A stretch of 64,000 nt of DNA from an uncultured Candidatus Saccharibacteria bacterium (GTDB lineage: Bacteria > Patescibacteriota > Saccharimonadia > Saccharimonadales > Saccharimonadaceae), in NCBI GenBank assembly GCA_946804195.1, contig CAMPEU010000017.1, forward strand, positions 3,533 through 67,532. Reading direction: 5' to 3'. Below the pieces are notes generated by a model. That model made no database searches. It was not told the origin of the DNA and saw only the letters and a program-made list of their open reading frames with translations. Each line of letters begins with the position of its first letter. Position 1 is the stretch's first letter. Below, piece after piece: positions 4,308 through 51,049 of the stretch. Both the position numbers and the translations under genes were made by a program.

Positions 4308-5177
4308 TTAGTGTTCAGATTCGAGTAGTCTAGTGATGTACCGTTCTGCGTCCTTCACGTTATACCATTTTATGTGTTCATTTCGACGCAACCACGTAAG
4401 CTGGCGCTTGGCCAAGCGCCAATCCAGCACAATAAATCGCTGCTTCATTTCGGAAAAAGTCAGAGTCCCTTGAATGTACTGCCGACAAAGCGGGTAGATA
4501 TTGCCGGTCATTGACTCATAATCCCAACCGTATACATCACTCAATCTCGTTGCCTCATCTACGACTCCTTCATCAAATATCTGCTCTGCTCGTTGTGCAA
4601 TACGACTCTTTAATATGTTAATTTCCGTTGATATTCCTACAATGTTGCAATTATTAATAGGGGTCTTTCTCCTCTTATTGTTTATACTTCCTTGCTCAAT
4701 TGCCCTTACTACGTACCTTTTATTTTTATAGTTTTCAGGTAGCACAACGTTGTGTTTTATACAGTAATCATATAGTTGATCCAAGGTCATCTCCATGAGT
4801 TTACTGCGTGTGTCACCGTCAGTGTCTGAACCAAATTGATAATCAAAAATGACTGAGTCTACATATAGCCCGCTACCACCGACTAGCAATGGTACCTTGC
4901 CTCGCATTCTAATATCAGCGATCCTTTCGTCAGCATATTTCTTGAAATCAGCTGCCGTAAATCTTTCGTTCGGCTCAACAAGATCAAGCCCCCAATGCCT
5001 CACCTCAGATTGCTCCGCTTTAGTTGGTTTTGCCGTCCCAATATCCATACCCTTATACACGGTCCTGCTATCAGCACAGATTATTTCACCATCAAATCGT
5101 TTTGCGACATTAATAGCCAAAGCTGTTTTTCCACTGGCGGTCGGACCAACAATAGCGATTAAAGGTTTGGTTTCCAT
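4308..5177 (-). CDS. miaA: tRNA dimethylallyltransferase
   Basis: P-loop IAIVGPTASGKTALAI followed by ADSRTVYKGMDIGTAKPT, the MiaA signature. Confidence 0.9.
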   Translation of the reverse strand: METKPLIAIVGPTASGKTALAINVAKRFDGEIICADSRTVYKGMDIGTAKPTKAEQSEVRHWGLDLVEPNERFTAADFKKYADERIADIRMRGKVPLLVGGSGLYVDSVIFDYQFGSDTDGDTRSKLMEMTLDQLYDYCIKHNVVLPENYKNKRYVVRAIEQGSINNKRRKTPINNCNIVGISTEINILKSRIAQRAEQIFDEGVVDEATRLSDVYGWDYESMTGNIYPLCRQYIQGTLTFSEMKQRFIVLDWRLAKRQLTWLRRNEHIKWYNVKDAERYITRLLESEH

Positions 5178-5470
5178 CTAATCTCCTCGAAATTATCAAC
5201 GATATGATTTGTAGATAAAATACCTTCTTGTTTAAGTATTTGCTCTTGCACTTCCCTGCCTCCGTGAAATCCACTCGCTAAGCCACCAAACCGATTAACC
5301 AACCTATGCCATGGAAGCCTTTGATCTCCATAATGTGCAATTCCTCCAATGATACGACTAGCACGCGGTTGTCCAGCAAGTGCGGCTAGATCGCCATAGG
5401 TCGTCACCGACCCCGCTGGTACGCGTACAATTAGCTCTTCAACTCTAGTTTTTAATGATACTTGCCGCAA
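5159..5470 (-). CDS. Alkyltransferase-like (ATL) protein, MGMT DNA-binding domain without the catalytic Cys
   Basis: VPAGSVTTYGDLA...RLPWHRLVN. The PCHR active site of Ogt/Ada is PWHR here, as in ATL proteins. Confidence 0.7.
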   Translation of the reverse strand: MRQVSLKTRVEELIVRVPAGSVTTYGDLAALAGQPRASRIIGGIAHYGDQRLPWHRLVNRFGGLASGFHGGREVQEQILKQEGILSTNHIVDNFEEIRWKPNL

Positions 5471-6092
5471 TGCGAATAATCTCCTCTTTTGCAGTGGTCA
5501 TATCCGAACAGCGCACCATACCATATGGTAATTGTTCTCGTTGATTCCAAGGCAAATTATCAAATACGATAGCGTTAGGAACGCCACTGTCAATGACACT
5601 TGCGCAATGATCAATATGATCATCAATATGAACAATCGCACAGAGCCGACGACAAACTTCACCCTTGGACCTACTATCTTCTTTAAACATATTCGTATGA
5701 TGTATGTCCTGAAAACAATCTTTAAAATGCTCGTTTACTAACCACAGGGTATGACTCGCCATAATTTTTTCAGTCCTGCCGGTCACGATGTGTTGCTCAA
5801 AATTGATCTCGCAATAACTTGCGAGGCTACGGACGACATCGATAGACCCCGGCGACAAGGGTAAATCTCGAACCTCATGTCCACGATCTTCAAAGATTGG
5901 TGCTATCCTCCTATTAATTTCACCCCAATCATCTCCCTCAACACCCCAATCAATAGGTGTACCGTAAAATTTTGCAGGATCGACATCAAATCCAAAACGT
6001 CGTTGATAGTGATCAATTAACCATGATGCTGTGCCGTCGACAATAACATCGTCAAGATCCCATGTAACAACAACTTTCGGCTTTTCGCTCAC
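5445..6092 (-). CDS. HAD-superfamily hydrolase (5'-nucleotidase-like)
   Basis: N-terminal DLDDV motif I (DxDxV) in VVVTWDLDDVIVDG; size and layout resemble NT5C-type nucleotidases. Confidence 0.5.
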   Translation of the reverse strand: MSEKPKVVVTWDLDDVIVDGTASWLIDHYQRRFGFDVDPAKFYGTPIDWGVEGDDWGEINRRIAPIFEDRGHEVRDLPLSPGSIDVVRSLASYCEINFEQHIVTGRTEKIMASHTLWLVNEHFKDCFQDIHHTNMFKEDSRSKGEVCRRLCAIVHIDDHIDHCASVIDSGVPNAIVFDNLPWNQREQLPYGMVRCSDMTTAKEEIIRIAASIIKN

Positions 6093-7915
6093 TATAAACC
6101 TTTTAGATACTCACCTAATTGATCAAGCGCCACTTTTTCTTCACCGGATTGAGTTCGTACGCTTACTTCTCGAGCATCTTTATCTCGAGGACCAACAATC
6201 AACTGTACGGATACCTTCATCGCCGTTGCCTCTTTAATCTTTTTACCCAAAGATTCATTGCGAGCATCCCTAGTAAACCGAATTTCATTATACTTTACAG
6301 GTTTCATCAATACCGTATCCGTAAGCACCTTCTCGATCTCCTCGACATAATCGATAACCGAATCATTAATCGTCAGAATCCTCACCTGTTCAGGAGCTAG
6401 CCAGAACGGGAACCAGCCACCGGTTTGTTCAATCAAAATTCCCATAAAACGCTCGAACGCACCCATAATAGATTTATGAATAACGACAGGGAACTGTTTA
6501 TTACCTTCTGCATCCACGTAGGTAATATTCATTCTTTCCGGAACGAGAATGTCAATCTGTACGGTTGCAATTGTATCTTCCTTACCGTGCACATTCTTGA
6601 TCTGTACATCTAGTTTTGGACCATAAAATGCAGCTTCATCTTCGACGGCAACGAAAGGTTCACCGGATTGTTCTAAACAGCCACGAATAACTCCTGAGGC
6701 TTCCTTCCATTTTTCGGGATCTCCAGAATACTTTTTTCCTTCACCAAAGTCAGGCAACGACAGTCGGTACCAGTAATCTTTAACCCCGCATATTTTATAA
6801 ATATCCTTAAAGAATTCCAATAAATTGCTAAACTCTCGTTCTACCTGATCTTGTGCCATATACATATGTGAATCATTCTGAGTGATTGGACCACGCATAC
6901 GTATCAAGCCCGTTAATGTACCCGAAAGCTCATAGCGATAAAGCCCGGCATGCTCGGAAAGGCGTAATGGTAAATCCTTATAAGACGGTTGCATCCGTTC
7001 AAACACCATGTGATGGTGCGGACAGTTCATCGGTTTAATATAGAACTTGTTGCCCTCTTCATCCGGTGCGGTCGCATACATATCTTCCAGGAAATACTTC
7101 GCATGACCTGATCGTATATATAACTCCTCTTGCGTCAGTACAGGGGTGGCGACATATGTGTAGCCTCGAGATTCTTCTTGTTGTCGCATTAGTGTCATTA
7201 ATGTATGCTTTATCTTTTCGCCACGCGGTAACAATAGCGGCAACCCCTTACCCACACTTTCTGAGATAAAGAATAGATCCAAATCCTGACCGAGCTTTCG
7301 ATGATCGCGACTTTTAGCTAACTCAACCTGTTCAAGATGCCTGTCAAGTTCATCATTATTTGCAAAAGCAACACCATATAGCCTCTGCATTTGTGGATTC
7401 TTCTCATTACCACGCCAATACGCACCTGCAACCCTACTCAACTTGAATACACCTACATCATGAGTATTAGCCACGTGTGGACCACGGCAAAGATCAGTAA
7501 AATCTCCATTTTTATAAAATGAGACATCGCTCATAGCGGCATCACCATCGGTGATTGTACCCATTTCATCCGCCGCGAGATCCTTCGCAACAGTAGTCCC
7601 GCTACGCTTCAAGTCATTCAATAACTCCTCCTTGTACGGCTGACGGCTATCACGCGCCCATGCAATCGCTTCGTCAATCGGTAGCGTGAAATGCTCAAAA
7701 TCTTGGTGTTCATCAATAATCTTTTTCATTTCATTTTCGATTTTTTCGAAATCTACCTCTGAAATTTTTGTCTCACCCAGATCAATATCGTAATAAAATC
7801 CGTTCTCTACCACTGGTCCAACACCAAATTTTGCATCCGACCACAAGCGCCTAACGGCAGCCGCAGTAATATGCGCCAAGCTATGTCTCATTGCGTGTAA
7901 TTGATTATCGTCCAT
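6092..7915 (-). CDS. thrS: Threonine--tRNA ligase (no N-terminal TGS domain)
   Basis: HAMRHSLAHITAAAV (HxxxH editing/SAD motif), RGPHV, class II core and a C-terminal anticodon-binding domain; 607 aa. Confidence 0.95.
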   Translation of the reverse strand: MDDNQLHAMRHSLAHITAAAVRRLWSDAKFGVGPVVENGFYYDIDLGETKISEVDFEKIENEMKKIIDEHQDFEHFTLPIDEAIAWARDSRQPYKEELLNDLKRSGTTVAKDLAADEMGTITDGDAAMSDVSFYKNGDFTDLCRGPHVANTHDVGVFKLSRVAGAYWRGNEKNPQMQRLYGVAFANNDELDRHLEQVELAKSRDHRKLGQDLDLFFISESVGKGLPLLLPRGEKIKHTLMTLMRQQEESRGYTYVATPVLTQEELYIRSGHAKYFLEDMYATAPDEEGNKFYIKPMNCPHHHMVFERMQPSYKDLPLRLSEHAGLYRYELSGTLTGLIRMRGPITQNDSHMYMAQDQVEREFSNLLEFFKDIYKICGVKDYWYRLSLPDFGEGKKYSGDPEKWKEASGVIRGCLEQSGEPFVAVEDEAAFYGPKLDVQIKNVHGKEDTIATVQIDILVPERMNITYVDAEGNKQFPVVIHKSIMGAFERFMGILIEQTGGWFPFWLAPEQVRILTINDSVIDYVEEIEKVLTDTVLMKPVKYNEIRFTRDARNESLGKKIKEATAMKVSVQLIVGPRDKDAREVSVRTQSGEEKVALDQLGEYLKGL

Positions 7916-8183: not shown

Positions 8184-8260
8184 GGGCGATTAGCTCAGCT
8201 GGCTAGAGCGCCTCATTGACGTTGAGGAGGTCGGGGATTCGAATTCCTCATCGCCCACCA
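8184..8260 (+). tRNA. tRNA-Val (anticodon GAC), CCA encoded
   Basis: Acceptor GGGCGAT/ATCGCCC, D arm GCTC-AGCTGGCTA-GAGC, anticodon arm CCTCA-TTGACGT-TGAGG, T arm GGGGA-TTCGAAT-TCCTC. Confidence 0.9.
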
Positions 8261-10728: not shown

Positions 10729-10804
10729 TGGAGCCGCTGTCCGGATTTGAACCGGAGGCCTACGCTTTACGAAAGCGTCGCTCTACCAACTGAGCTACAG
10801 CGGC
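10729..10804 (-). tRNA. tRNA-Thr (anticodon CGT), discriminator U, CCA encoded
   Basis: Acceptor GCCGCTG/CAGCGGC, D arm GCTC-AGTTGGTA-GAGC, anticodon arm ACGCT-TTCGTAA-AGCGT, T arm TCCGG-TTCAAAT-CCGGA. Confidence 0.9.
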
Positions 10805-10918: not shown

Positions 10919-10996
10919 GGGCCCGTAGTGAAGTTGGCCTATCACGTCTCCCTGTCACGGAGAAGATCGCCGGTTCGAATCCGGTCGGGCCCGCCA
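10919..10996 (+). tRNA. tRNA-Asp (anticodon GTC), CCA encoded
   Basis: Acceptor GGGCCCG/CGGGCCC, anticodon arm TCTCC-CTGTCAC-GGAGA, T arm GCCGG-TTCGAAT-CCGGT. Confidence 0.9.
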
Positions 10997-23200: not shown

Positions 23201-23277
23201 TGGTACCCCGGGCAGGAGTCGAACCTGCAACCTTATCCTTAGGACGGATCTGCTCTATCCAGTTGAGCTACCGAGGC
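23201..23277 (-). tRNA. tRNA-Arg (anticodon CCT), CCA encoded
   Basis: Acceptor GCCTCGG/CCGGGGT (two G-U pairs), D arm GCTC-AACTGGATA-GAGC, anticodon loop GTCCTAA, T arm GCAGG-TTCGACT-CCTGC. Confidence 0.85.
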
Positions 23278-43675: not shown

Positions 43676-44311
43676 CTATAAATCAGTTGTTGGATCGGAC
43701 TTGTCCAGCAATCCACGAACAATTACATCCGTAGAAAGAAGCTTTCTTGTTCGGAATAAACCTGACCTAACAGTTGCGGGTTCAATGTTCAATTCTTCGC
43801 TAATTTCGTCATTGGTTTTTTCATACACGGCGCGCAGAACAAACATGTCATACCAGTTTTGGTGTTCTGGGCACAAAATCTCTTTTGCGCGTTGCATCAC
43901 TAAATCAAAATTATCATTCAACTCAACGTCTTCGTAACCATCGTTTGCAGTCCGATCGGGATATTCTGCATATTCCCGCATATCCGACGCTAGCACTTGA
44001 TTGCGACGAACCTTTGCACGCCCTTCATTAAAAATCGAGTTACGCAAAACTGTAAAGAGCCAACCTTGACGCAGGGTTGCCTTGTCAGTAATGATTTCTC
44101 CGTTCTCATTACGGTAGAAGTTATCAAACGCTTTCATAAAGACATCTTGAACCGCGTTTGCGGGATCGCGTGCACCGTATCGAAACTTGGCCATGCGTAG
44201 CAACGGTTCGGAAAACTGTAAGTATAACTCGTCAAAAGTGTATGCCTCTGCATCAGAGACTGCTGTTTTAGTGCTAATTTCCACTTTCGGGGAGGTATCA
44301 CCATAAGCCAT
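43676..44311 (-). CDS. ECF-type RNA polymerase sigma factor (sigma-70 regions 2 and 4)
   Basis: AVQDVFMKAF...GWLFTVLRNSIFNEGRA (region 2) and NDEISEELNIEPATVRSGLFRTRKLL (region 4 HTH). Start at ATG 44311 is set by the promoter below. Confidence 0.8.
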   Translation of the reverse strand: MAYGDTSPKVEISTKTAVSDAEAYTFDELYLQFSEPLLRMAKFRYGARDPANAVQDVFMKAFDNFYRNENGEIITDKATLRQGWLFTVLRNSIFNEGRAKVRRNQVLASDMREYAEYPDRTANDGYEDVELNDNFDLVMQRAKEILCPEHQNWYDMFVLRAVYEKTNDEISEELNIEPATVRSGLFRTRKLLSTDVIVRGLLDKSDPTTDL

Positions 44312-44318
44312 TTGTAAC

Positions 44319-44347
44319 ATTGTACCATAATACCGGAATTTTGTAAA
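44319..44347 (-). promoter_or_regulatory. Promoter TTTACA-N17-TACAAT, 7 nt upstream of the sigma-factor ATG
   Basis: Read on the minus strand: tttaca aaattccggtattatgg tacaat gttacaa ATG. Confidence 0.55.
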
Positions 44348-44352
44348 TACCA

Positions 44353-44394
44353 CAAAAAAGCGAAAAGGCGCCGTACCCGAAGGTCGTGCGCCTT
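44353..44394 (-). terminator. Hairpin plus T-rich tract downstream of the sortase gene
   Basis: Minus strand: aaggcgc...gcgcctt followed by ttcgctttttt. Confidence 0.55.
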
Positions 44395-44429
44395 TATCAC
44401 TACGTAGGAATCACATTTCCTGATAATAC

Positions 44430-45089
44430 TTATCGAGGAACTGCGCTGATCAAATCAGCCGTCACCACCGATGCGGCTGATTCCTTGCTATTGCAACTGA
44501 CCATTACTACCCTGTTAGGTACGCTATCGTACACGAGTGTGCTGTTGGGCATCTCTTCGTACGCTACTAATGCGGGAGTGTTCGCTCGATACGTGAACAC
44601 CGCGTTTTGTGTCGTCACGATAACGGCATCCCCGGCAATGACGGCTGGAAGGTTATTGAAGACCTGTTGGTCAGTATTGTTCCAGTTGGAATGACCAAAG
44701 ATGAGTACCGTATCCTCTGACGGGACCGATGGCAGACCGAATGCACCATACCATGCCGCCTCTTTTAGGAGTGGTGGGTCGATACACGTTACTCCGCCGT
44801 GGCATCGTGGTGATTCACGTGGCCAAGTCTCGCCCGATACTTTGGCGTCGATAGCAACCGCGGGAATACTGACATTGAGGATATCCGTCGCCTCGATGAC
44901 GAGCGGGGCCTCTGCGACAATCGTCTCCTGTAGTTGTTGCGCGTTTTGTATCGCTTGCGTTGACTCTGCAAGAGAGCCTGCGCGCTGAGGGGATGGCTTG
45001 CTGGGCAGAAATGACCACAGCACGTATGCTATCGCCAAACAAATTACGACCAGTAGACCAGGAATTAGCAGTCGTTTGAATATATTCAT
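44430..45089 (-). CDS. Sortase-family transpeptidase (class E/F-like)
   Basis: N-terminal TM anchor, TVLIFGHSNW (catalytic His) and RVVMVSCNS (catalytic Cys). ATG at 45089 has an AAGGAG RBS. Confidence 0.75.
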   Translation of the reverse strand: MNIFKRLLIPGLLVVICLAIAYVLWSFLPSKPSPQRAGSLAESTQAIQNAQQLQETIVAEAPLVIEATDILNVSIPAVAIDAKVSGETWPRESPRCHGGVTCIDPPLLKEAAWYGAFGLPSVPSEDTVLIFGHSNWNNTDQQVFNNLPAVIAGDAVIVTTQNAVFTYRANTPALVAYEEMPNSTLVYDSVPNRVVMVSCNSKESAASVVTADLISAVPR

Positions 45090-45157
45090 CAGACTCCTTA
45101 CGTAGCCGAAATGTACAAAGTCAAGGTGACTCTTATCTACTATTATATAATAATTAA

Positions 45158-45204
45158 TTAAAAAATACAAGAAAACAGCCCGACGCAATGTGCGCCGGGC
45201 TGTT
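45158..45204 (-). terminator. Rho-independent terminator after the 57-aa peptide gene
   Basis: Minus strand: aacagcccg-gcgcacattgcgt-cgggctgtt followed by ttcttgtatttttt. Confidence 0.6.
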
Positions 45205-45230
45205 AACGTTGAACTAGTTGAGAGTGATGG

Positions 45231-45404
45231 TCATGGACGCTCGTGCTCAGCTGTACGCCGGGATCGGCGTACTAGACCGAACAATGTTGCGGCGACAAGC
45301 AAGATGGCGAAAATCAGCATAAACATGCTGCCGGTATGCAAACCGTATGCAACCATTCCGCCTCCAGCACCAGCTCCGGTCCCGACATAAGCTCCGTATG
45401 GCAT
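45231..45404 (-). CDS. 57-aa Gly/Ala-rich membrane peptide with sortase-signal-like C-terminus
   Basis: AAGGAG RBS 8 nt upstream of the ATG at 45404. Sequence MPYGAYVGTGAGAGGGMVAYG-LHTGS-MFMLIFAILLVAATLFGLV-RRSRRTAEHERP. Co-transcribed with the GT2 gene; no terminator lies between them. Confidence 0.55.
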   Translation of the reverse strand: MPYGAYVGTGAGAGGGMVAYGLHTGSMFMLIFAILLVAATLFGLVRRSRRTAEHERP

Positions 45405-45444
45405 ACAGATATCTCCTTTCGTCGAATCGTAGGTTATCGTACCT

Positions 45445-46557
45445 TCAACCACTCACGCCTTCGGCGTGGTATTGAAGTTCCCACCGGTCTTTTCTTTGAC
45501 CGGTAATCCTAGCAGATAGTACCTCGACCCATGCAGCCACGAACCATGCAGTTCTGATCCACCCAAAAATCTCGTATGGGAGAATCGTCATCGCAAGGAC
45601 TCGGTCCTTCCAGTCTGGATTTGGAATTCGCAGACTGAGATAGGCTTCGCTACCAACGAATAATAGTGGATATACAAGCCACCAGAACCAATGGAACTGG
45701 AAGATTCCGACGAAGACCTGTAGCCCAATTAAAACAAGCCACAGTACCCGTACGAAAACCATGAAACCACCGAGAAGCTGTTGCCCCCAGTCAACCAGCG
45801 TGAGCCGGGTGACACCGAGAGAAATCAGATCATCGATTGTTCCAGTAGACCACTTCATACGTTGATCCCACATGGTTCTGAGACTACTCATACTGTCTGT
45901 GTACATGCGAACCCGTGGGCTTGCTATACACAGATAGCCACGCTTACGAAGCTGAACTGTCAGTTCGAAGTCTTCCACCGCTGAGGTGTAAGACCACGGA
46001 CCTTCACGGCCAGTTTCGTCGACGATTCGGCGCAACGCCGCGTTGTAAAACGCAGCGCCCGCACCGGGCAACACGGTAGTAAAACCGCGCAACAGACTGG
46101 CGTCTACCGACTTGGCAAACTCAGCCTTTTGCAAACGATCCCAAAAACCTGTCTTTGGCATGGTTGCCTTGGCAGCGGAACCACCGAGTGGCTTGTAATG
46201 CCTCTTTCGTCTCAGAACACCTTTGAAATCCTCTACCCAAAGCTCGATGGCATTTGGGTCAAAGATCGTATCGGCGTCGACACTGATAACGATGTCGGCA
46301 TCACGTGCATGCGCATTCCATGCCCTATTGAGGGCTTCGGACTTCTTGTGCTCGAGCTTTGGAAGCTCTAACACAACAACTGATGCACTGCGACTCATGT
46401 ATGACCTCGCGACCTCGGCCGTATTGTCAGTACACCCATTAGGAATAACGACAATCGTATCGAGGGGACGTGTCTGTGCGAGTAGGGCCTCAATTGTAGC
46501 CCCAATACTTTGCGCCTCGTTATACGCTGGAATCAGCGCAACGATTTTTTGGGCCAC
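45445..46557 (-). CDS. Family-2 glycosyltransferase, IcaA/PgaC/NodC-like processive synthase
   Basis: VALIPAYNEAQSIGATIEALLAQT, ISVDADT (DxD), QRMKWSTG (QxxRW-type) and a C-terminal TM bundle. GTG start with an AGAGG RBS. Confidence 0.85.
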   Translation of the reverse strand: MAQKIVALIPAYNEAQSIGATIEALLAQTRPLDTIVVIPNGCTDNTAEVARSYMSRSASVVVLELPKLEHKKSEALNRAWNAHARDADIVISVDADTIFDPNAIELWVEDFKGVLRRKRHYKPLGGSAAKATMPKTGFWDRLQKAEFAKSVDASLLRGFTTVLPGAGAAFYNAALRRIVDETGREGPWSYTSAVEDFELTVQLRKRGYLCIASPRVRMYTDSMSSLRTMWDQRMKWSTGTIDDLISLGVTRLTLVDWGQQLLGGFMVFVRVLWLVLIGLQVFVGIFQFHWFWWLVYPLLFVGSEAYLSLRIPNPDWKDRVLAMTILPYEIFGWIRTAWFVAAWVEVLSARITGQRKDRWELQYHAEGVSG

Positions 46558-46655
46558 GAAAGAGCACCTCTTTCATTCTAGTTAAACGTTAACGTGCGTG
46601 TACAATACGCATGGCTATTGGTCACCCAATCACATACATATATACTCAACTATTT

Positions 46656-46684
46656 ATTTTAGCATAAATATTTATAAAAGTCAA
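46656..46684 (-). promoter_or_regulatory. Promoter TTGACT-N17-TAAAAT driving the GT2-peptide transcript (~90-nt 5' UTR)
   Basis: Read on the minus strand, downstream of the deacetylase terminator. Confidence 0.55.
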
Positions 46685-46714
46685 TGATATACCTCTGTAA
46701 AAGCCCGCTTAGTT

Positions 46715-46753
46715 CTGAAAAATGAGCAGCCCCCACTCCGGAGAGTGGGGGCT
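46715..46753 (-). terminator. Rho-independent terminator after the deacetylase gene
   Basis: 11-bp stem agcccccactc-tccg-gagtgggggct followed by gctcattttt on the minus strand. Confidence 0.65.
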
Positions 46754-46767
46754 TTGGATGGAGATGC

Positions 46768-47511
46768 TCATGCGCCCTGGTCGTACTTCCAGTGCATCTG
46801 CTTCAGATAGTCGACAATGGCATCGATGAGGCGGGGGGTGTACTGACCACCCATGTGCATCAAAATAACACCATCAGGTCCGAGCGGCGGAAGGTTTACA
46901 TAACCATTCCGCAACCGATCCATCATGACCTCGACACCGTCACCGTTCCAGTCGAGTGTATCGGCCGTCCACGTGCAAACCTGAATCTTCTTCTCGGTCA
47001 GACGGCTACGCATCAACGTGTCGTAAGCACCCTCTCCGTACGGGGGTCGCAACAACATCGGCTGTGTGTTGATGACTCCTTCGACAGGATGAATCTCACC
47101 GTAAAACGCCGATTCGTTGGTGTCCGACAACACCTTGAGATTGACGTGAGAATACGTGTGGTTGCCGATCATATGCCCCTCTGCCTTCATCTGGTCGATG
47201 AGATAAAGGTGCTTCTGCGCCCACTGTCCGGTCGGAAAGAAGGCGGCACGAATGTTGTAGTGACGCAGTCGTTCCAGTATGTCGTAAATCTGTTGATCCG
47301 TCCCCTGGTCGTCAAACGTCAACAAGACGCCACGATTGTCCGGCCGGTTACAGTGCTGGATTACCTGTTTGGATGTGTTATTCACACTTCCGTCGTTGAG
47401 AATCCAGGCAACTGGCTTTGCCGGTTGCGGGGGTACCTCGTTGCTCGAGCAGCCCGCGACCACCAAGGCGGTCACGAACAGACAAGCCACAAAGGCATGA
47501 ATCTTACGCAT
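46768..47511 (-). CDS. Polysaccharide deacetylase (CE4 / NodB homology domain) lipoprotein
   Basis: Lipobox LVVAGCSS; LLTFDDQGTD (Asp-Asp motif 1); GNHTYSHVNL (His-His motif 2); LLRPPYGE (motif 3). Confidence 0.85.
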   Translation of the reverse strand: MRKIHAFVACLFVTALVVAGCSSNEVPPQPAKPVAWILNDGSVNNTSKQVIQHCNRPDNRGVLLTFDDQGTDQQIYDILERLRHYNIRAAFFPTGQWAQKHLYLIDQMKAEGHMIGNHTYSHVNLKVLSDTNESAFYGEIHPVEGVINTQPMLLRPPYGEGAYDTLMRSRLTEKKIQVCTWTADTLDWNGDGVEVMMDRLRNGYVNLPPLGPDGVILMHMGGQYTPRLIDAIVDYLKQMHWKYDQGA

Positions 47512-47687
47512 TACATCTCCTAAAGGTTCGAGGTATAAGTACCTATCTCTGTAATTTTAACATATATTCATAATAAAGTCAACTATAGCCCCTATACCTA
47601 CCCTCGTACGGAAGAGCCAGCAAATCGTAACAAAAAACATCACCTCACTAGTGGCGCACACCGCCCCAGTATTGTTACAATAGAAAC

Positions 47688-49986: not shown

Positions 49987-50454
49987 TCAGCAACCTGTCG
50001 CCTCTTTTACGCTCACATGTAACACTATATCGTCACCGCCCCCGTTCACGCCATCGGGCCCTACACTCTCGATATATGTATTCGCACCGCCCAAAGAACC
50101 TGTATTACAGTCATTGTCATCATACCCCCAGCAATTACCCCAGGGATCCGTCGCACTGAAGCCTACGTACCCCGCACCACTCAATGCAGCTATAAGACTA
50201 TTGATGGTAGCGCAGCTTGGTGGATCAGTATTGTAATTCCATGCATCACCAACAGGCGGAAGCTCCCTGTTCACTACTTTATAAGCAAGCATCGCCTTCT
50301 TAAAACTAGCAAGTTCAGAACTTGCCTGGTTGGTTCTCGCTTGCGCCGTGATACCGCTATATGCAACGGTAACAATCGCCGCAAGGATACCAATCACCAC
50401 AACTACGATTAATAATTCAACAATTGTGAACCCAAAGCTTTTTATTCTATTCAC
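49987..50454 (-). CDS. Type IV pilin / pseudopilin (PulG-like), orphan copy
   Basis: FGFTIVELLIVVVVIGILAAIVTVAY. Confidence 0.8.
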   Translation of the reverse strand: MNRIKSFGFTIVELLIVVVVIGILAAIVTVAYSGITAQARTNQASSELASFKKAMLAYKVVNRELPPVGDAWNYNTDPPSCATINSLIAALSGAGYVGFSATDPWGNCWGYDDNDCNTGSLGGANTYIESVGPDGVNGGGDDIVLHVSVKEATGC

Positions 50455-50482
50455 ATAATAATTTTAACATAAGCACATAACA

Positions 50483-51049
50483 TCAATCGCCGCCATAGCA
50501 CCGTTGGTGATATCCACTAGACTTATTCAACCAATCCCGATTATTGCCAGTGTAAGCCTGCATACAATAGCTAGGACCTTGGCCTACCTCATATGCATTA
50601 GAAAAATATCCGCCATCGTTTGCACCACCATCACCCTCCAACTGCACCATTAACCCGTACGTCTGATAATTATCATTTGCCTGACTGGCATATGCATAAT
50701 AAAAGCCTCCAGATGGTACTGATAATTCCGTTGGGTCAAACTTTGCATATGGCGCCAATGCGTCAGTCAGCGTCTTTAGACGATCACAATGACCCCAATT
50801 ATCAGTCTGTGAACCACATGATGATTCATAACCTAAGCCGTGTAAAATGTGTGGGTAATCGCCATTTTCAACGTAATACAGCTCTATCGCCTTTTGTAGT
50901 TGATTCAAAGTTGCAATACGACTTGAATCACGAGCCGCAGACTGAATACCAGTGTACGCAACAGTAACAATCGCGGCTAGAATACCTATAACGACGACTA
51001 CAATCAAAAGTTCTACGATGGTGAATCCAGACCTGCGAGTGATGCCCAT
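50483..51049 (-). CDS. Type IV pilin / pseudopilin, orphan copy
   Basis: SGFTIVELLIVVVVIGILAAIVTVAY; four Cys in the head domain. Confidence 0.8.
   Translation of the reverse strand: MGITRRSGFTIVELLIVVVVIGILAAIVTVAYTGIQSAARDSSRIATLNQLQKAIELYYVENGDYPHILHGLGYESSCGSQTDNWGHCDRLKTLTDALAPYAKFDPTELSVPSGGFYYAYASQANDNYQTYGLMVQLEGDGGANDGGYFSNAYEVGQGPSYCMQAYTGNNRDWLNKSSGYHQRCYGGD

Follow-up and report, generated by a model that had tools for sequence, protein, structure and literature searches.

A conserved cassette of a GT2 glycosyltransferase, a single-helix micro-protein, a CE4 deacetylase and an atypical sortase-fold enzyme in Saccharibacteria: a candidate variant of surface-glycan systems

Do five adjacent genes in a Candidatus Saccharibacteria genome represent an exopolysaccharide operon of a known type, governed by its own sigma factor, or a surface system of a different make? 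The genes in question (43676-47582) are located on a single strand, the minus strand, of a 64,000-nucleotide stretch of contig CAMPEU010000017.1, referred to below as the window, and encode a CE4 deacetylase, a GT2 glycosyltransferase, a protein of only 57 residues, a sortase and an extracytoplasmic function (ECF) sigma factor. An earlier note on this DNA had equated the first three with IcaB, IcaA and IcaD, or PgaB, PgaC and PgaD, the proteins that make poly-N-acetylglucosamine (PNAG), and had considered the sigma factor to be dedicated to them. All five genes were found at the coordinates claimed for them, and the motifs quoted in the note are present in the sequence. The first four, called here the cassette, are best described as a new variant of MatB/Ica-like surface-glycan systems, with a minimal GT2, a split-off helix and, in this lineage, an atypical sortase-fold enzyme. 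With moderate confidence we read the cassette as a variant synthase-dependent surface-glycan system that has a two-gene membrane glycosyltransferase as its core and CE4 or the copper oxidase GlxA as its tailoring enzyme, with the sigma factor being part of the genomic backbone. Saccharibacteria live attached to Actinobacteria, and for such cells the cassette is a compact, conserved candidate for a surface-glycan module. The five genes are as follows.

46768-47511, minus strand: CE4 (NodB-type) polysaccharide deacetylase, a lipoprotein (Pfam Polysacc_deac_1, PF01522)
45445-46557, minus strand: GT2 enzyme with a minimal synthase-like fold (Pfam Glyco_tranf_2_3, Glycos_transf_2 and Glyco_trans_2_3)
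45231-45404, minus strand: single-pass micro-protein of 57 residues (MPYG start, Gly-rich, one transmembrane helix, basic tail ending in RP)
44430-45089, minus strand: membrane-anchored sortase-fold Cys/His enzyme (Pfam Sortase, PF04203, with an N-terminal anchor)
43676-44347, minus strand: ECF-type sigma gene (43676-44311) with its promoter (TTTACA, 17 nt, TACAAT)

The cassette recurs with varied flanks in about ten related metagenomic loci. The order CE4-GT2-small open reading frame (ORF)-sortase is retained between unrelated flanks in L001, L002/L003, L006, L085/L086, L089 and L115, with GT2 identities of 57-77% in the first five of these. In a sister lineage (L087/L088, L094, L107, L108, L111, L112 and L114) a radical copper oxidase, GlxA, replaces CE4, giving the order GlxA-GT2-peptide-sortase. 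A separate search based on the sortase family recovered 11 metagenomic loci, among them five of the GlxA type, one of the CE4 type, two that are cut off upstream of GT2, and two chimeras. GT2 is present in every locus of the sortase family that has enough upstream sequence, the two chimera loci excepted. The latter, L105/L106, represent the nearest relative of the window; a single ORF there (4473-5477, also represented by protein P0122) consists of the first ~150 residues of CE4 fused with the catalytic portion of the sortase, with GT2 and the peptide deleted, and the cassette is therefore decaying in that relative. P0122 was considered as a "Rosetta stone" fusion of CE4 and sortase and set aside, as it is a deletion chimera without CE4 motifs 4-5, GT2 and the peptide. 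A scan of the contigs with the single GT2 protein used patterns that proved overly specific, and only two true relatives were recovered (L005 and L006), the remaining loci containing generic GT2 enzymes. L006 belongs to an uncultured Candidatus Saccharibacteria bacterium and its GT2 is 75% identical to that of the window, while another homologue, P0041, is also from a Candidatus Saccharibacteria bacterium. These two records and the type IV pilin-like genes of the window support the guess of a probable episymbiont made in the earlier note, without proving it for each of the related loci. The neighbourhood proposed in the earlier note is thus conserved among relatives as far as CE4, GT2, the peptide and the sortase are concerned, although not for the sigma gene, which is absent from the neighbourhood in more distant relatives.

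Such recurrence bears on the simplest alternative, namely that a peptidoglycan deacetylase of the CE4 family, a housekeeping sortase and an unrelated GT2 have come to lie together by chance. The separate promoter and terminator of each gene or gene pair would fit such a cluster, as would the closeness of the CE4 enzyme to PgdA-type deacetylases. Nevertheless, we consider chance a very improbable explanation, since the same order is repeated in some ten diverged loci whose flanking genes are unrelated, the sortase subfamily is confined to the neighbourhoods of GT2, fusions of GT2 with CE4 exist, and the cassette genes share a raised GC content.

The GT2 enzyme consists of 370 residues and carries the motifs DAD, VED and QRMKW, followed by hydrophobic C-terminal helices. 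Its cytoplasmic GT-A domain begins at residue 3 with no transmembrane helix preceding it, and helices 254-283, 290-308 and 325-352 are positioned in or at the membrane, for a total of two to three membrane helices. Within a family of 60 sequences, P39-N40-G41-C42, D44, D94/D96, E195-D196 and Q232-R233-K235-W236 are invariant, and M234 is nearly so. The DxD, (T)ED and Q(R/Q)xRW-type motifs of PgaC and IcaA are accordingly all present, albeit with two variations: the last motif has a Lys where PgaC and IcaA have Arg, and the first UDP-binding Asp has been replaced by Asn (PNGCxD). Profile comparison with hhalign places the catalytic domain nearest to IcaA (probability 99.1, score 138) and PgaC (98.7, score 122), in keeping with the part list of the earlier note, whereas the values for BcsA are much lower (69.8, score 46). 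The ED and QRMKW motifs of GT2 align with TED and QRLRW of IcaA/PgaC, and both alignments end before the membrane region; neither the N-terminal helices of PgaC/IcaA nor a homologue of their C-terminal membrane domain was found in GT2. PgaC_IcaA (TIGR03937) is the best NCBIfam model for this enzyme and aligns with residues 3-251, but at 80.4 bits it stays far under the equivalog cut-off of 422.3, and the orthology with Ica/Pga synthases that the earlier note implied is not sustained.

The AlphaFold2 model of GT2 (pLDDT 91) was compared with known structures using Foldseek. The top matches are hyaluronan synthases (E 4e-14, TMq 0.65), with BcsA and the chitin synthase Chs1 also matching, whereas the best two-way TM-score belongs to PcManGT (6yv7; 0.64/0.68, rmsd (root-mean-square deviation) 5.1), which is as close to the model as the hyaluronan synthases are. 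PcManGT, an archaeal membrane enzyme with a minimal cellulose-synthase-like fold, is similar in size, has the same succession of a GT-A domain and few C-terminal helices, and is also the best PDB profile match, although at the level of sequence the match is restricted to the N-terminal 100 residues and no peptide partner has been described for PcManGT.

The gene that follows GT2 has its own AGGAG ribosome-binding site, 42 nt beyond the stop codon of GT2, and is not separated from GT2 by any terminator. A comparable ORF of 49-62 residues was found 3' of GT2 in 11 of the 11 related loci examined, as well as in L006 and in both phage records examined. When aligned, the peptides all start with M(P)YG, continue through a stretch rich in Gly, Ala and Thr into a single hydrophobic helix with an Arg after it, and end in (R/K)P. 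None of the Pfam, NCBIfam or PHROG families matches them, and this "MYG...RP" micro-protein of 50-60 residues represents an unannotated family. The description of the peptide in the earlier note as a tiny membrane partner of GT2 agrees with its conservation after GT2 and with its fusion to GT2 in homologues. Its equation with PgaD does not survive, since the two are unrelated (BLASTP E 0.18, a comparison that did not extend to IcaD) and the peptide has one hydrophobic segment, compared to the two transmembrane helices of PgaD.

The relationship between the two proteins can be seen in their longer homologues. An exhaustive search with the GT2 profile yielded 333 cluster representatives at E <= 1e-30, and in eight of them (P0154, P0178, P0182, P0209, P0218, P0256, P0274 and P0283) GT2 and the peptide are fused. 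The fused C termini contain one or two extra helices and end in ...RWKDHQRP (HQRP) in P0154, GMRP in P0182, EMRP in P0256 and GYKP in P0178. Similarly, a GT2 encoded on a Lacticaseibacillus paracasei plasmid can be aligned with the family from end to end (hhalign probability 100) and has two extra C-terminal helices and a basic tail. Because these longer homologues carry fused helices that end alike, the free peptide appears to be the counterpart of their last transmembrane helix and cytoplasmic tail, split off as a synthase subunit in its own right, with a predicted N terminus outside and C terminus inside. The GT2-peptide pair would thus be an attractive minimal model for the assembly of the membrane part of synthase-like GT2 enzymes. 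Longer GT2 proteins with extra helices fused, 27% identical, are present in Lactobacillus phages and on the L. paracasei plasmid. A different role for the peptide, as a substrate of the neighbouring sortase, was also considered on account of its LHTG sequence, transmembrane helix and Arg-rich tail, and was rejected: LHTG is not conserved (MQYAS, LMRGS, LTLGS and others take its place), and the peptide is unchanged in Actinobacteria and phages in which no sortase is adjacent.

The deacetylase belongs to the CE4 family on the evidence of its match to PF01522 (78.6 bits, cut-off 23.1) and of its five NodB motifs (TFDD, NHTYSH, LRPPYG, DTLDW and ILMH), which follow the canonical order and include the Asp-His-His metal triad. 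It also carries a lipobox, VAGC. Of the proteins with known structure, two peptidoglycan GlcNAc deacetylases of Bacillus, 5o6y and 4l1g, are its best relatives (E 4e-24), whereas the similarity to PgaB and IcaB is limited to short patches and is not significant (E 0.022 and 0.17, respectively), so that the enzyme is not the equivalent of IcaB or PgaB that the earlier note had taken it to be.

A link between the deacetylase and GT2 comes from proteins in which both are fused. About a dozen clusters, including P0296-P0305, have the architecture GT2-transmembrane helix-CE4, and one of them is named as Propionibacteriaceae. The best of all 333 representatives, P0146 (649 residues, 607 bits), begins with GT2, which is followed by a basic stretch, then by one transmembrane helix and finally by an intact CE4 domain; the protein is found on two independent high-GC contigs (L100 5001-7237 and L101 665-2904), probably from Propionibacteriaceae, and is followed by an overlapping gene of the Acyl_transf_3 family, to which IcaC belongs. 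Such an architecture shows that the C terminus of GT2 is cytoplasmic and that the deacetylase acts outside the membrane, close beside the enzyme. Together with the conserved synteny and the GT2-peptide fusions, it upholds the earlier proposal that GT2, the small peptide and CE4 form a functional unit. A more distant trio is encoded by separate genes in Embleya sp. (Streptomycetaceae; L102 3752-6080), with a GT2 of 431 residues (QRLRW; hhalign probability 99.9), a secreted CE4 and a small peptide of the MY... type. After this trio comes a large ORF in which motifs like those of Ser/Thr kinases were identified by eye. Another member of the GT2 family, P0216, has an N-terminal FHA domain, a hint of control by phosphorylation in some lineages.

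Among the described systems, MatAB of Streptomyces, which makes PNAG, is particularly similar. MatB is composed of a GT2 domain, a transmembrane helix and a CE4 domain, and an IcaC orthologue, SCO2961, is encoded downstream (PMC5972031). Its GT2 domain was found to be best matched by PgaC and its CE4 domain by the Bacillus cereus peptidoglycan deacetylase PgdA, BC_3618 (PMC5972031); likewise, among characterised proteins, the GT2 of the window is best matched by PgaC and its CE4 by a Bacillus cereus peptidoglycan GlcNAc deacetylase. P0146, with its fused architecture and the Acyl_transf_3 gene, has the layout of MatB as described in PMC5972031. However, GT2 and CE4 are separate proteins in the window, which therefore has no bifunctional enzyme of the MatB type, the micro-peptide and the sortase-like gene are additional, MatA is absent, and the named fusion proteins come from Propionibacteriaceae and not from Streptomyces. 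IcaADBC and PgaABCD resemble the cassette in that each combines a GT2 that has the DxD, ED and QxxRW-type motifs with a small partner in the membrane and with a CE4 enzyme that is extracellular, and the catalytic domains are homologous. They differ in that the GT2 of the window has no N-terminal helices and an unaligned C-terminal membrane part, its peptide has a single helix and is unrelated to PgaD, and its CE4 is not of the PgaB/IcaB type. In turn, the GlxA-type loci recall the cellulose synthase CslA of Streptomyces, of which GlxA is a known partner (PMC11022532), as GlxA is encoded directly upstream of GT2 in L087, L094 and L107-L114. CslA differs in having seven transmembrane helices and PilZ-like elements, and the window contains CE4 instead of GlxA. 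BcsA is the relative reported for CslA (PMC11022532), and it was with E. coli BcsA, not with CslA itself, that the weak profile match of GT2 was obtained.

Whether GT2 makes a polymer or transfers a single sugar has to be decided among these relationships. In the latter case, GT2 would be a non-processive enzyme that, with the peptide, loads one sugar on a polyprenyl-phosphate or glycolipid acceptor, for the decoration of a cell-wall glycopolymer or as a glycolipid anchor, in the manner of GtrB/CsbB, GacI with GacJ, or PcManGT, and phages would use the gene to alter the surface receptors of their hosts. The similarity to PcManGT, the small size of GT2, its few membrane helices and the missing N-terminal helix are what such an enzyme would show, and the GT2-peptide pair is carried by actinobacteriophages of a lytic type, with PHROGs pointing to the moron and host takeover category and to a weak GtrB-like match. 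Yet the motifs QRMKW and ED, both invariant, align with those that bind the acceptor and serve catalysis in IcaA/PgaC, and the NCBIfam models of GtrB and ArnC score very poorly with GT2. A lipid-linked monosaccharide would also need a GT-C type transferase, and neither such a transferase nor a flippase was seen among the called genes in the neighbourhoods whose gene tables were read, which argues for a polymer. The fusion to an extracellular CE4, the IcaC-type acyltransferase, GlxA and the glycanase neighbours described below are typical of synthase-dependent polymers. We thus hold the lipid-acceptor role to be possible but doubtful, and favour a polymer, because tailoring enzymes (CE4, GlxA, acyltransferase) are fused or adjacent to GT2, CslA-GlxA provides a precedent, GH26 and GH16 enzymes are neighbours, and no GT-C enzyme was seen.

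The sortase-like enzyme is also a constant member of the cassette, in agreement with the unusual association of a sortase with glycan genes remarked upon in the earlier note. Its match to PF04203 is above the cut-off (37 bits against 26.6), its His is located in GHSNW and its Cys in VSCNS, as had been claimed, and all top 50 PDB matches of its AlphaFold2 model (pLDDT 85) in Foldseek are sortases. The subfamily is small, with 16 homologues found, at least seven of them on contigs that equal in length contigs with GT2 homologues, and H133 and C199 are invariant in 17 of the 17 members. What is missing is the canonical Arg: the position aligned to the Arg of Clostridium perfringens SrtD (4d70; Cys+7) is occupied by Ala, Ser or Gly in all 17, and no other Arg downstream of Cys is conserved, which leaves the His-Cys-Arg triad incomplete. 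The family has instead invariants of its own, W-P-R91 and C96-x5-C102-I-D-P. The enzyme thus shares with classical sortases A-F the fold, the N-terminal anchor and the invariant His and Cys, but it differs from them by the absent Arg, by scores below the cut-offs of all NCBIfam class models (the best being class F, with 24 bits against 166), by its strict linkage to GT2 and the peptide, and by the lack of any LPXTG-type substrate encoded in the window. Literature searches found no description of the cassette, of the sortase subfamily, of the peptide, or of the function of the phage enzymes. A sortase fold without the canonical Arg that is confined to this module suggests a sortase chemistry tied to a polysaccharide pathway. 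Coupling of sortase action to surface glycosylation is represented by SrtA/GspA of Actinomyces. We can speculate, while considering it unlikely, that the enzyme uses the tailored glycan, with amines made by CE4 or groups made by GlxA, as an acceptor in place of lipid II, or that it processes the micro-peptide, to yield protein-polysaccharide conjugates, and that the split two-subunit synthase moves among hosts, phages and epibionts. If true, the surface of the epibiont would carry covalent protein-polysaccharide conjugates that serve in attachment to the host.

The favoured reading of the cassette as a variant synthase-dependent surface-glycan system may be envisaged in the following way. The 370-residue GT2 and the 57-residue peptide would form a two-gene membrane glycosyltransferase, in which a cytoplasmic GT-A domain of the cellulose/chitin/hyaluronan/PNAG-synthase type is followed by a short membrane domain that returns the C terminus to the cytoplasm, and the peptide, in a presumed physical complex, completes that domain by supplying its last helix. 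This machine would most likely use a UDP-sugar to produce a β-linked glycan and let it emerge on the outer side of the membrane; our best guess is a polymer of N-acetylhexosamine, similar to PNAG or chitin. There CE4, a lipoprotein, would remove some of the acetyl groups, as the synteny and the GT2-transmembrane helix-CE4 fusions suggest, while in the sister lineage GlxA would tailor the product instead. The sortase-fold enzyme, also anchored outside, would take part in this surface pathway as well, plausibly through the cleavage or linkage of a partner protein. The GT2-peptide pair would be the part common to Actinobacteria and their phages, to which the cassette of the Saccharibacteria type adds the sortase and a tailoring enzyme.

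Several observations weigh against this mechanism. The membrane domain of GT2 is minimal, with a single segment that passes a strict hydrophobicity threshold and with a cytoplasmic C terminus, and the modelled fold is as near to PcManGT as to the hyaluronan synthases. PcManGT is reportedly a non-processive mannosyltransferase that depends on dolichyl phosphate (Dol-P) and has a "half tunnel", and a QxxRW-like motif is also present in the non-processive ceramide glucosyltransferases. Processivity of GT2, asserted in the earlier note, is hence reduced to a plausible property. The first UDP-binding Asp is replaced by Asn, as mentioned above. The identity of the sugar is divided, CE4 suggesting an acetylated sugar and GlxA together with GH26/GH16 suggesting a glucan or mannan. 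CE4, which has its own promoter and terminator and resembles peptidoglycan deacetylases, could also act on the cell wall, and the absence of the Arg could mean that the activity of the sortase is different or lost. Finally, an ECF sigma gene is also located near the cassette remnant of L105/L106, which keeps a regulatory link conceivable.

The last point touches on how the cassette is transcribed. The sequence elements found around its genes are listed below.

47554-47582, minus strand: sigma-70-like promoter of the CE4 unit, a consensus match only (TTGACT, 17 nt, TG-n-TAAAAT)
46728-46753, minus strand: intrinsic terminator 3' of CE4 (-29.3 kcal/mol, z = -5.6, then a U-run)
46656-46684, minus strand: sigma-70-like promoter of the GT2-peptide bicistron (TTGACT, 17 nt, TG-n-TAAAAT; 10/12 matches)
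46578-46593, minus strand: arm of a 16-nt complementarity in the 5' untranslated region (inverted repeat I11, 15/16 complementary)
45202-45217, minus strand: 3' arm of the same complementarity, immediately upstream of the peptide-gene terminator
45174-45204, minus strand: intrinsic terminator 3' of the peptide gene (14-bp stem, -27.4 kcal/mol, z = -6.5)
45142-45170, minus strand: candidate sortase promoter (perfect -10 TATAAT, weak -35 TTGTAT, 17-nt spacer)
44359-44401 (approximately), minus strand: intrinsic terminator 3' of the sortase gene (fragment of -28.1 kcal/mol, z = -3.3, then UUUUCGCUUUUUU)

The promoter of the CE4 unit matches 10 of the 12 consensus positions and has a TG extension, and it is nearly identical in sequence to the promoter of the bicistron. 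The candidate sortase promoter was read by eye and lies under the threshold of the promoter scan. Four units, each bounded by a hairpin terminator, had been described for this region; terminators were indeed found after CE4, the peptide gene and the sortase gene, the last of these with a U-run 3' of a bulged stem, on account of which it was missed in the first hairpin scan. No terminator hairpin follows the sigma gene (folding z = +0.76), whose stop codon is 1 nt away from the end of a convergent ORF.

The sigma factor itself is of the ECF type, with regions 2 and 4 recognized by sigma70-ECF TIGR02937 (54 bits, cut-off 42.9) and Sigma70_r4_2 (30.5 bits, cut-off 25.7). Its ATG (44311) is located 7 nt after TACAAT (44324-44319), as noted earlier, with TTTACA 17 nt upstream and a TG extension, and no Shine-Dalgarno sequence is visible before it. 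This spacing and the missing Shine-Dalgarno sequence make a leaderless mRNA plausible, and the message is probably of that kind. The observation that no anti-sigma gene lies beside it also stands, inasmuch as the convergent neighbour has no family match.

It is the dedication of this sigma factor to the cassette that the comparison with relatives does not bear out. The cassette neighbourhoods of L001, L002, L006, L085, L089, L115 and all GlxA-type loci contain no homologue of it. In L105/L106, an ECF sigma with 31% identity is encoded 2.1 kb upstream of the cassette remnant, directly beside the YchF and pilin genes, with the remnant on its other side. In the window, the sigma gene is separated from YchF by ~5 kb of DNA that comprises a hypothetical gene, FKBP and the cassette. 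As the sigma gene of L105/L106 adjoins YchF and pilin genes that both genomes share, its proximity to the cassette appears to be inherited from the backbone. The GC content at third codon positions (GC3) of the sigma gene is 0.42, which is backbone-like, compared to 0.50-0.68 in the cassette genes. With no synteny in distant relatives, a backbone GC3, and near-consensus sigma-70-like promoters before CE4 and GT2, the sigma factor is probably a backbone gene that stands beside the cassette and does not regulate it, and the link that made the arrangement look regulated is probably incidental.

The same observations bear on the interpretation of the locus as an Ica/Pga-type PNAG operon, with equivalents of IcaA, IcaD and IcaB run by the adjacent leaderless ECF sigma. 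The parts do match in kind, PgaC_IcaA is the best curated family match, the sigma gene lies directly downstream on the same strand, and the ECF sigma close to the remnant in L105/L106 is in line with such a scheme. The score of GT2 with PgaC_IcaA, however, reaches 80 bits where 422 are called for, CE4 is not of the PgaB/IcaB type and the peptide is not a PgaD homologue, while the sigma gene is absent near distant cassettes, has the GC3 of the backbone in which its L105 relative also resides, and is accompanied by sigma-70-like promoters before CE4 and GT2. We consider this interpretation improbable, and retain the variant surface-glycan system with a bystander sigma factor.

The composition of the cassette genes sets them apart from their surroundings. 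GC3 is 0.68 in CE4, 0.53 in GT2, 0.50 in the peptide gene and 0.54 in the sortase gene, compared to 0.38-0.49 in the surrounding genes, and the overall GC content of the cassette genes (44430-47511) is 0.52-0.56, against a genomic background of about 0.43-0.49. The cassette was probably acquired laterally, and the raised GC content possibly reflects a source among high-GC Actinobacteria or their phages. GT2 shares 52-57% identity with proteins of Friedmanniella and of Arthrobacter, Pseudarthrobacter and other Micrococcaceae, and in the high-GC actinobacterial loci L004, L090, L092, L093 and L095 GT2 is followed by an ORF of 49-56 residues, with neither sortase nor CE4. Phage proteins annotated as "glycosyltransferase" are 47-53% identical to GT2 and come from 13 Microbacterium, 3 Arthrobacter and 2 Brevibacterium phage records. 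In Microbacterium phage Sparcetus, GT2 and the peptide gp66 (MYGTEAST...KVKP) are encoded by gp65/66 (L103 2495-3723), between the genes for a DnaE-like DNA polymerase and ThyX, and the corresponding pair in Arthrobacter phage AWGoat is gp77/76 (L104 2486-3717), with gp76 being the peptide (MYGAAPAA...KNRP). Identities of 47-57% with genes of Micrococcaceae and phages point to gene flow among hosts, phages and epibionts. In a neighbour-joining tree of 60 GT2 sequences, the Micrococcaceae cluster tightly in a single clade amid low-GC sequences of greater diversity, and the direction of transfer cannot be read from it.

The GT2-peptide pair of Pseudarthrobacter and Arthrobacter has as its convergent neighbour a gene for a GH26 glycanase that contains a TIG domain, and GH16 enzymes are encoded nearby in Arthrobacter L095. 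These GH26/GH16 genes are located at L004 7415-8668 and at L095 7366-8610, 3604-4335 and 10038-11183, and as neighbours they hint that the actinobacterial product may be a β-glucan or mannan rather than a GlcNAc polymer.

No convincing pair of terminal repeats surrounds the whole cassette, and the only pair that stands out is the 16-nt complementarity listed above, the arms of which enclose exactly the GT2-peptide bicistron, with the 5' arm directly before the ribosome-binding site. The duplex that they can form in the window (-22.1 kcal/mol, z = -5.3) is also present in L001 (5971-5990 / 7344-7363; z = -3.4) and L002 (5966-5982 / 7336-7352; z = -2.9), its outer base pairs varying among the three with pairing kept, and is absent from more distant loci. 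It could serve in pairing of the mRNA ends or could be what is left of the termini of a mobile element.

The region was also searched for known RNA elements and riboswitches, and for anti-phage defence systems with the PADLOC models, with no matches. Just beyond YchF, at 49987-51049, the window contains two tandem type IV pilin-like genes with the N-terminal sequence GFTIVELLIVVVVIGILAAI. Elsewhere in the window, the following RNA genes were located.

488-816: bacterial class A RNase P RNA
1724-1797, 8184-8257, 10732-10804, 10919-10993 and 23204-23277: five tRNA genes

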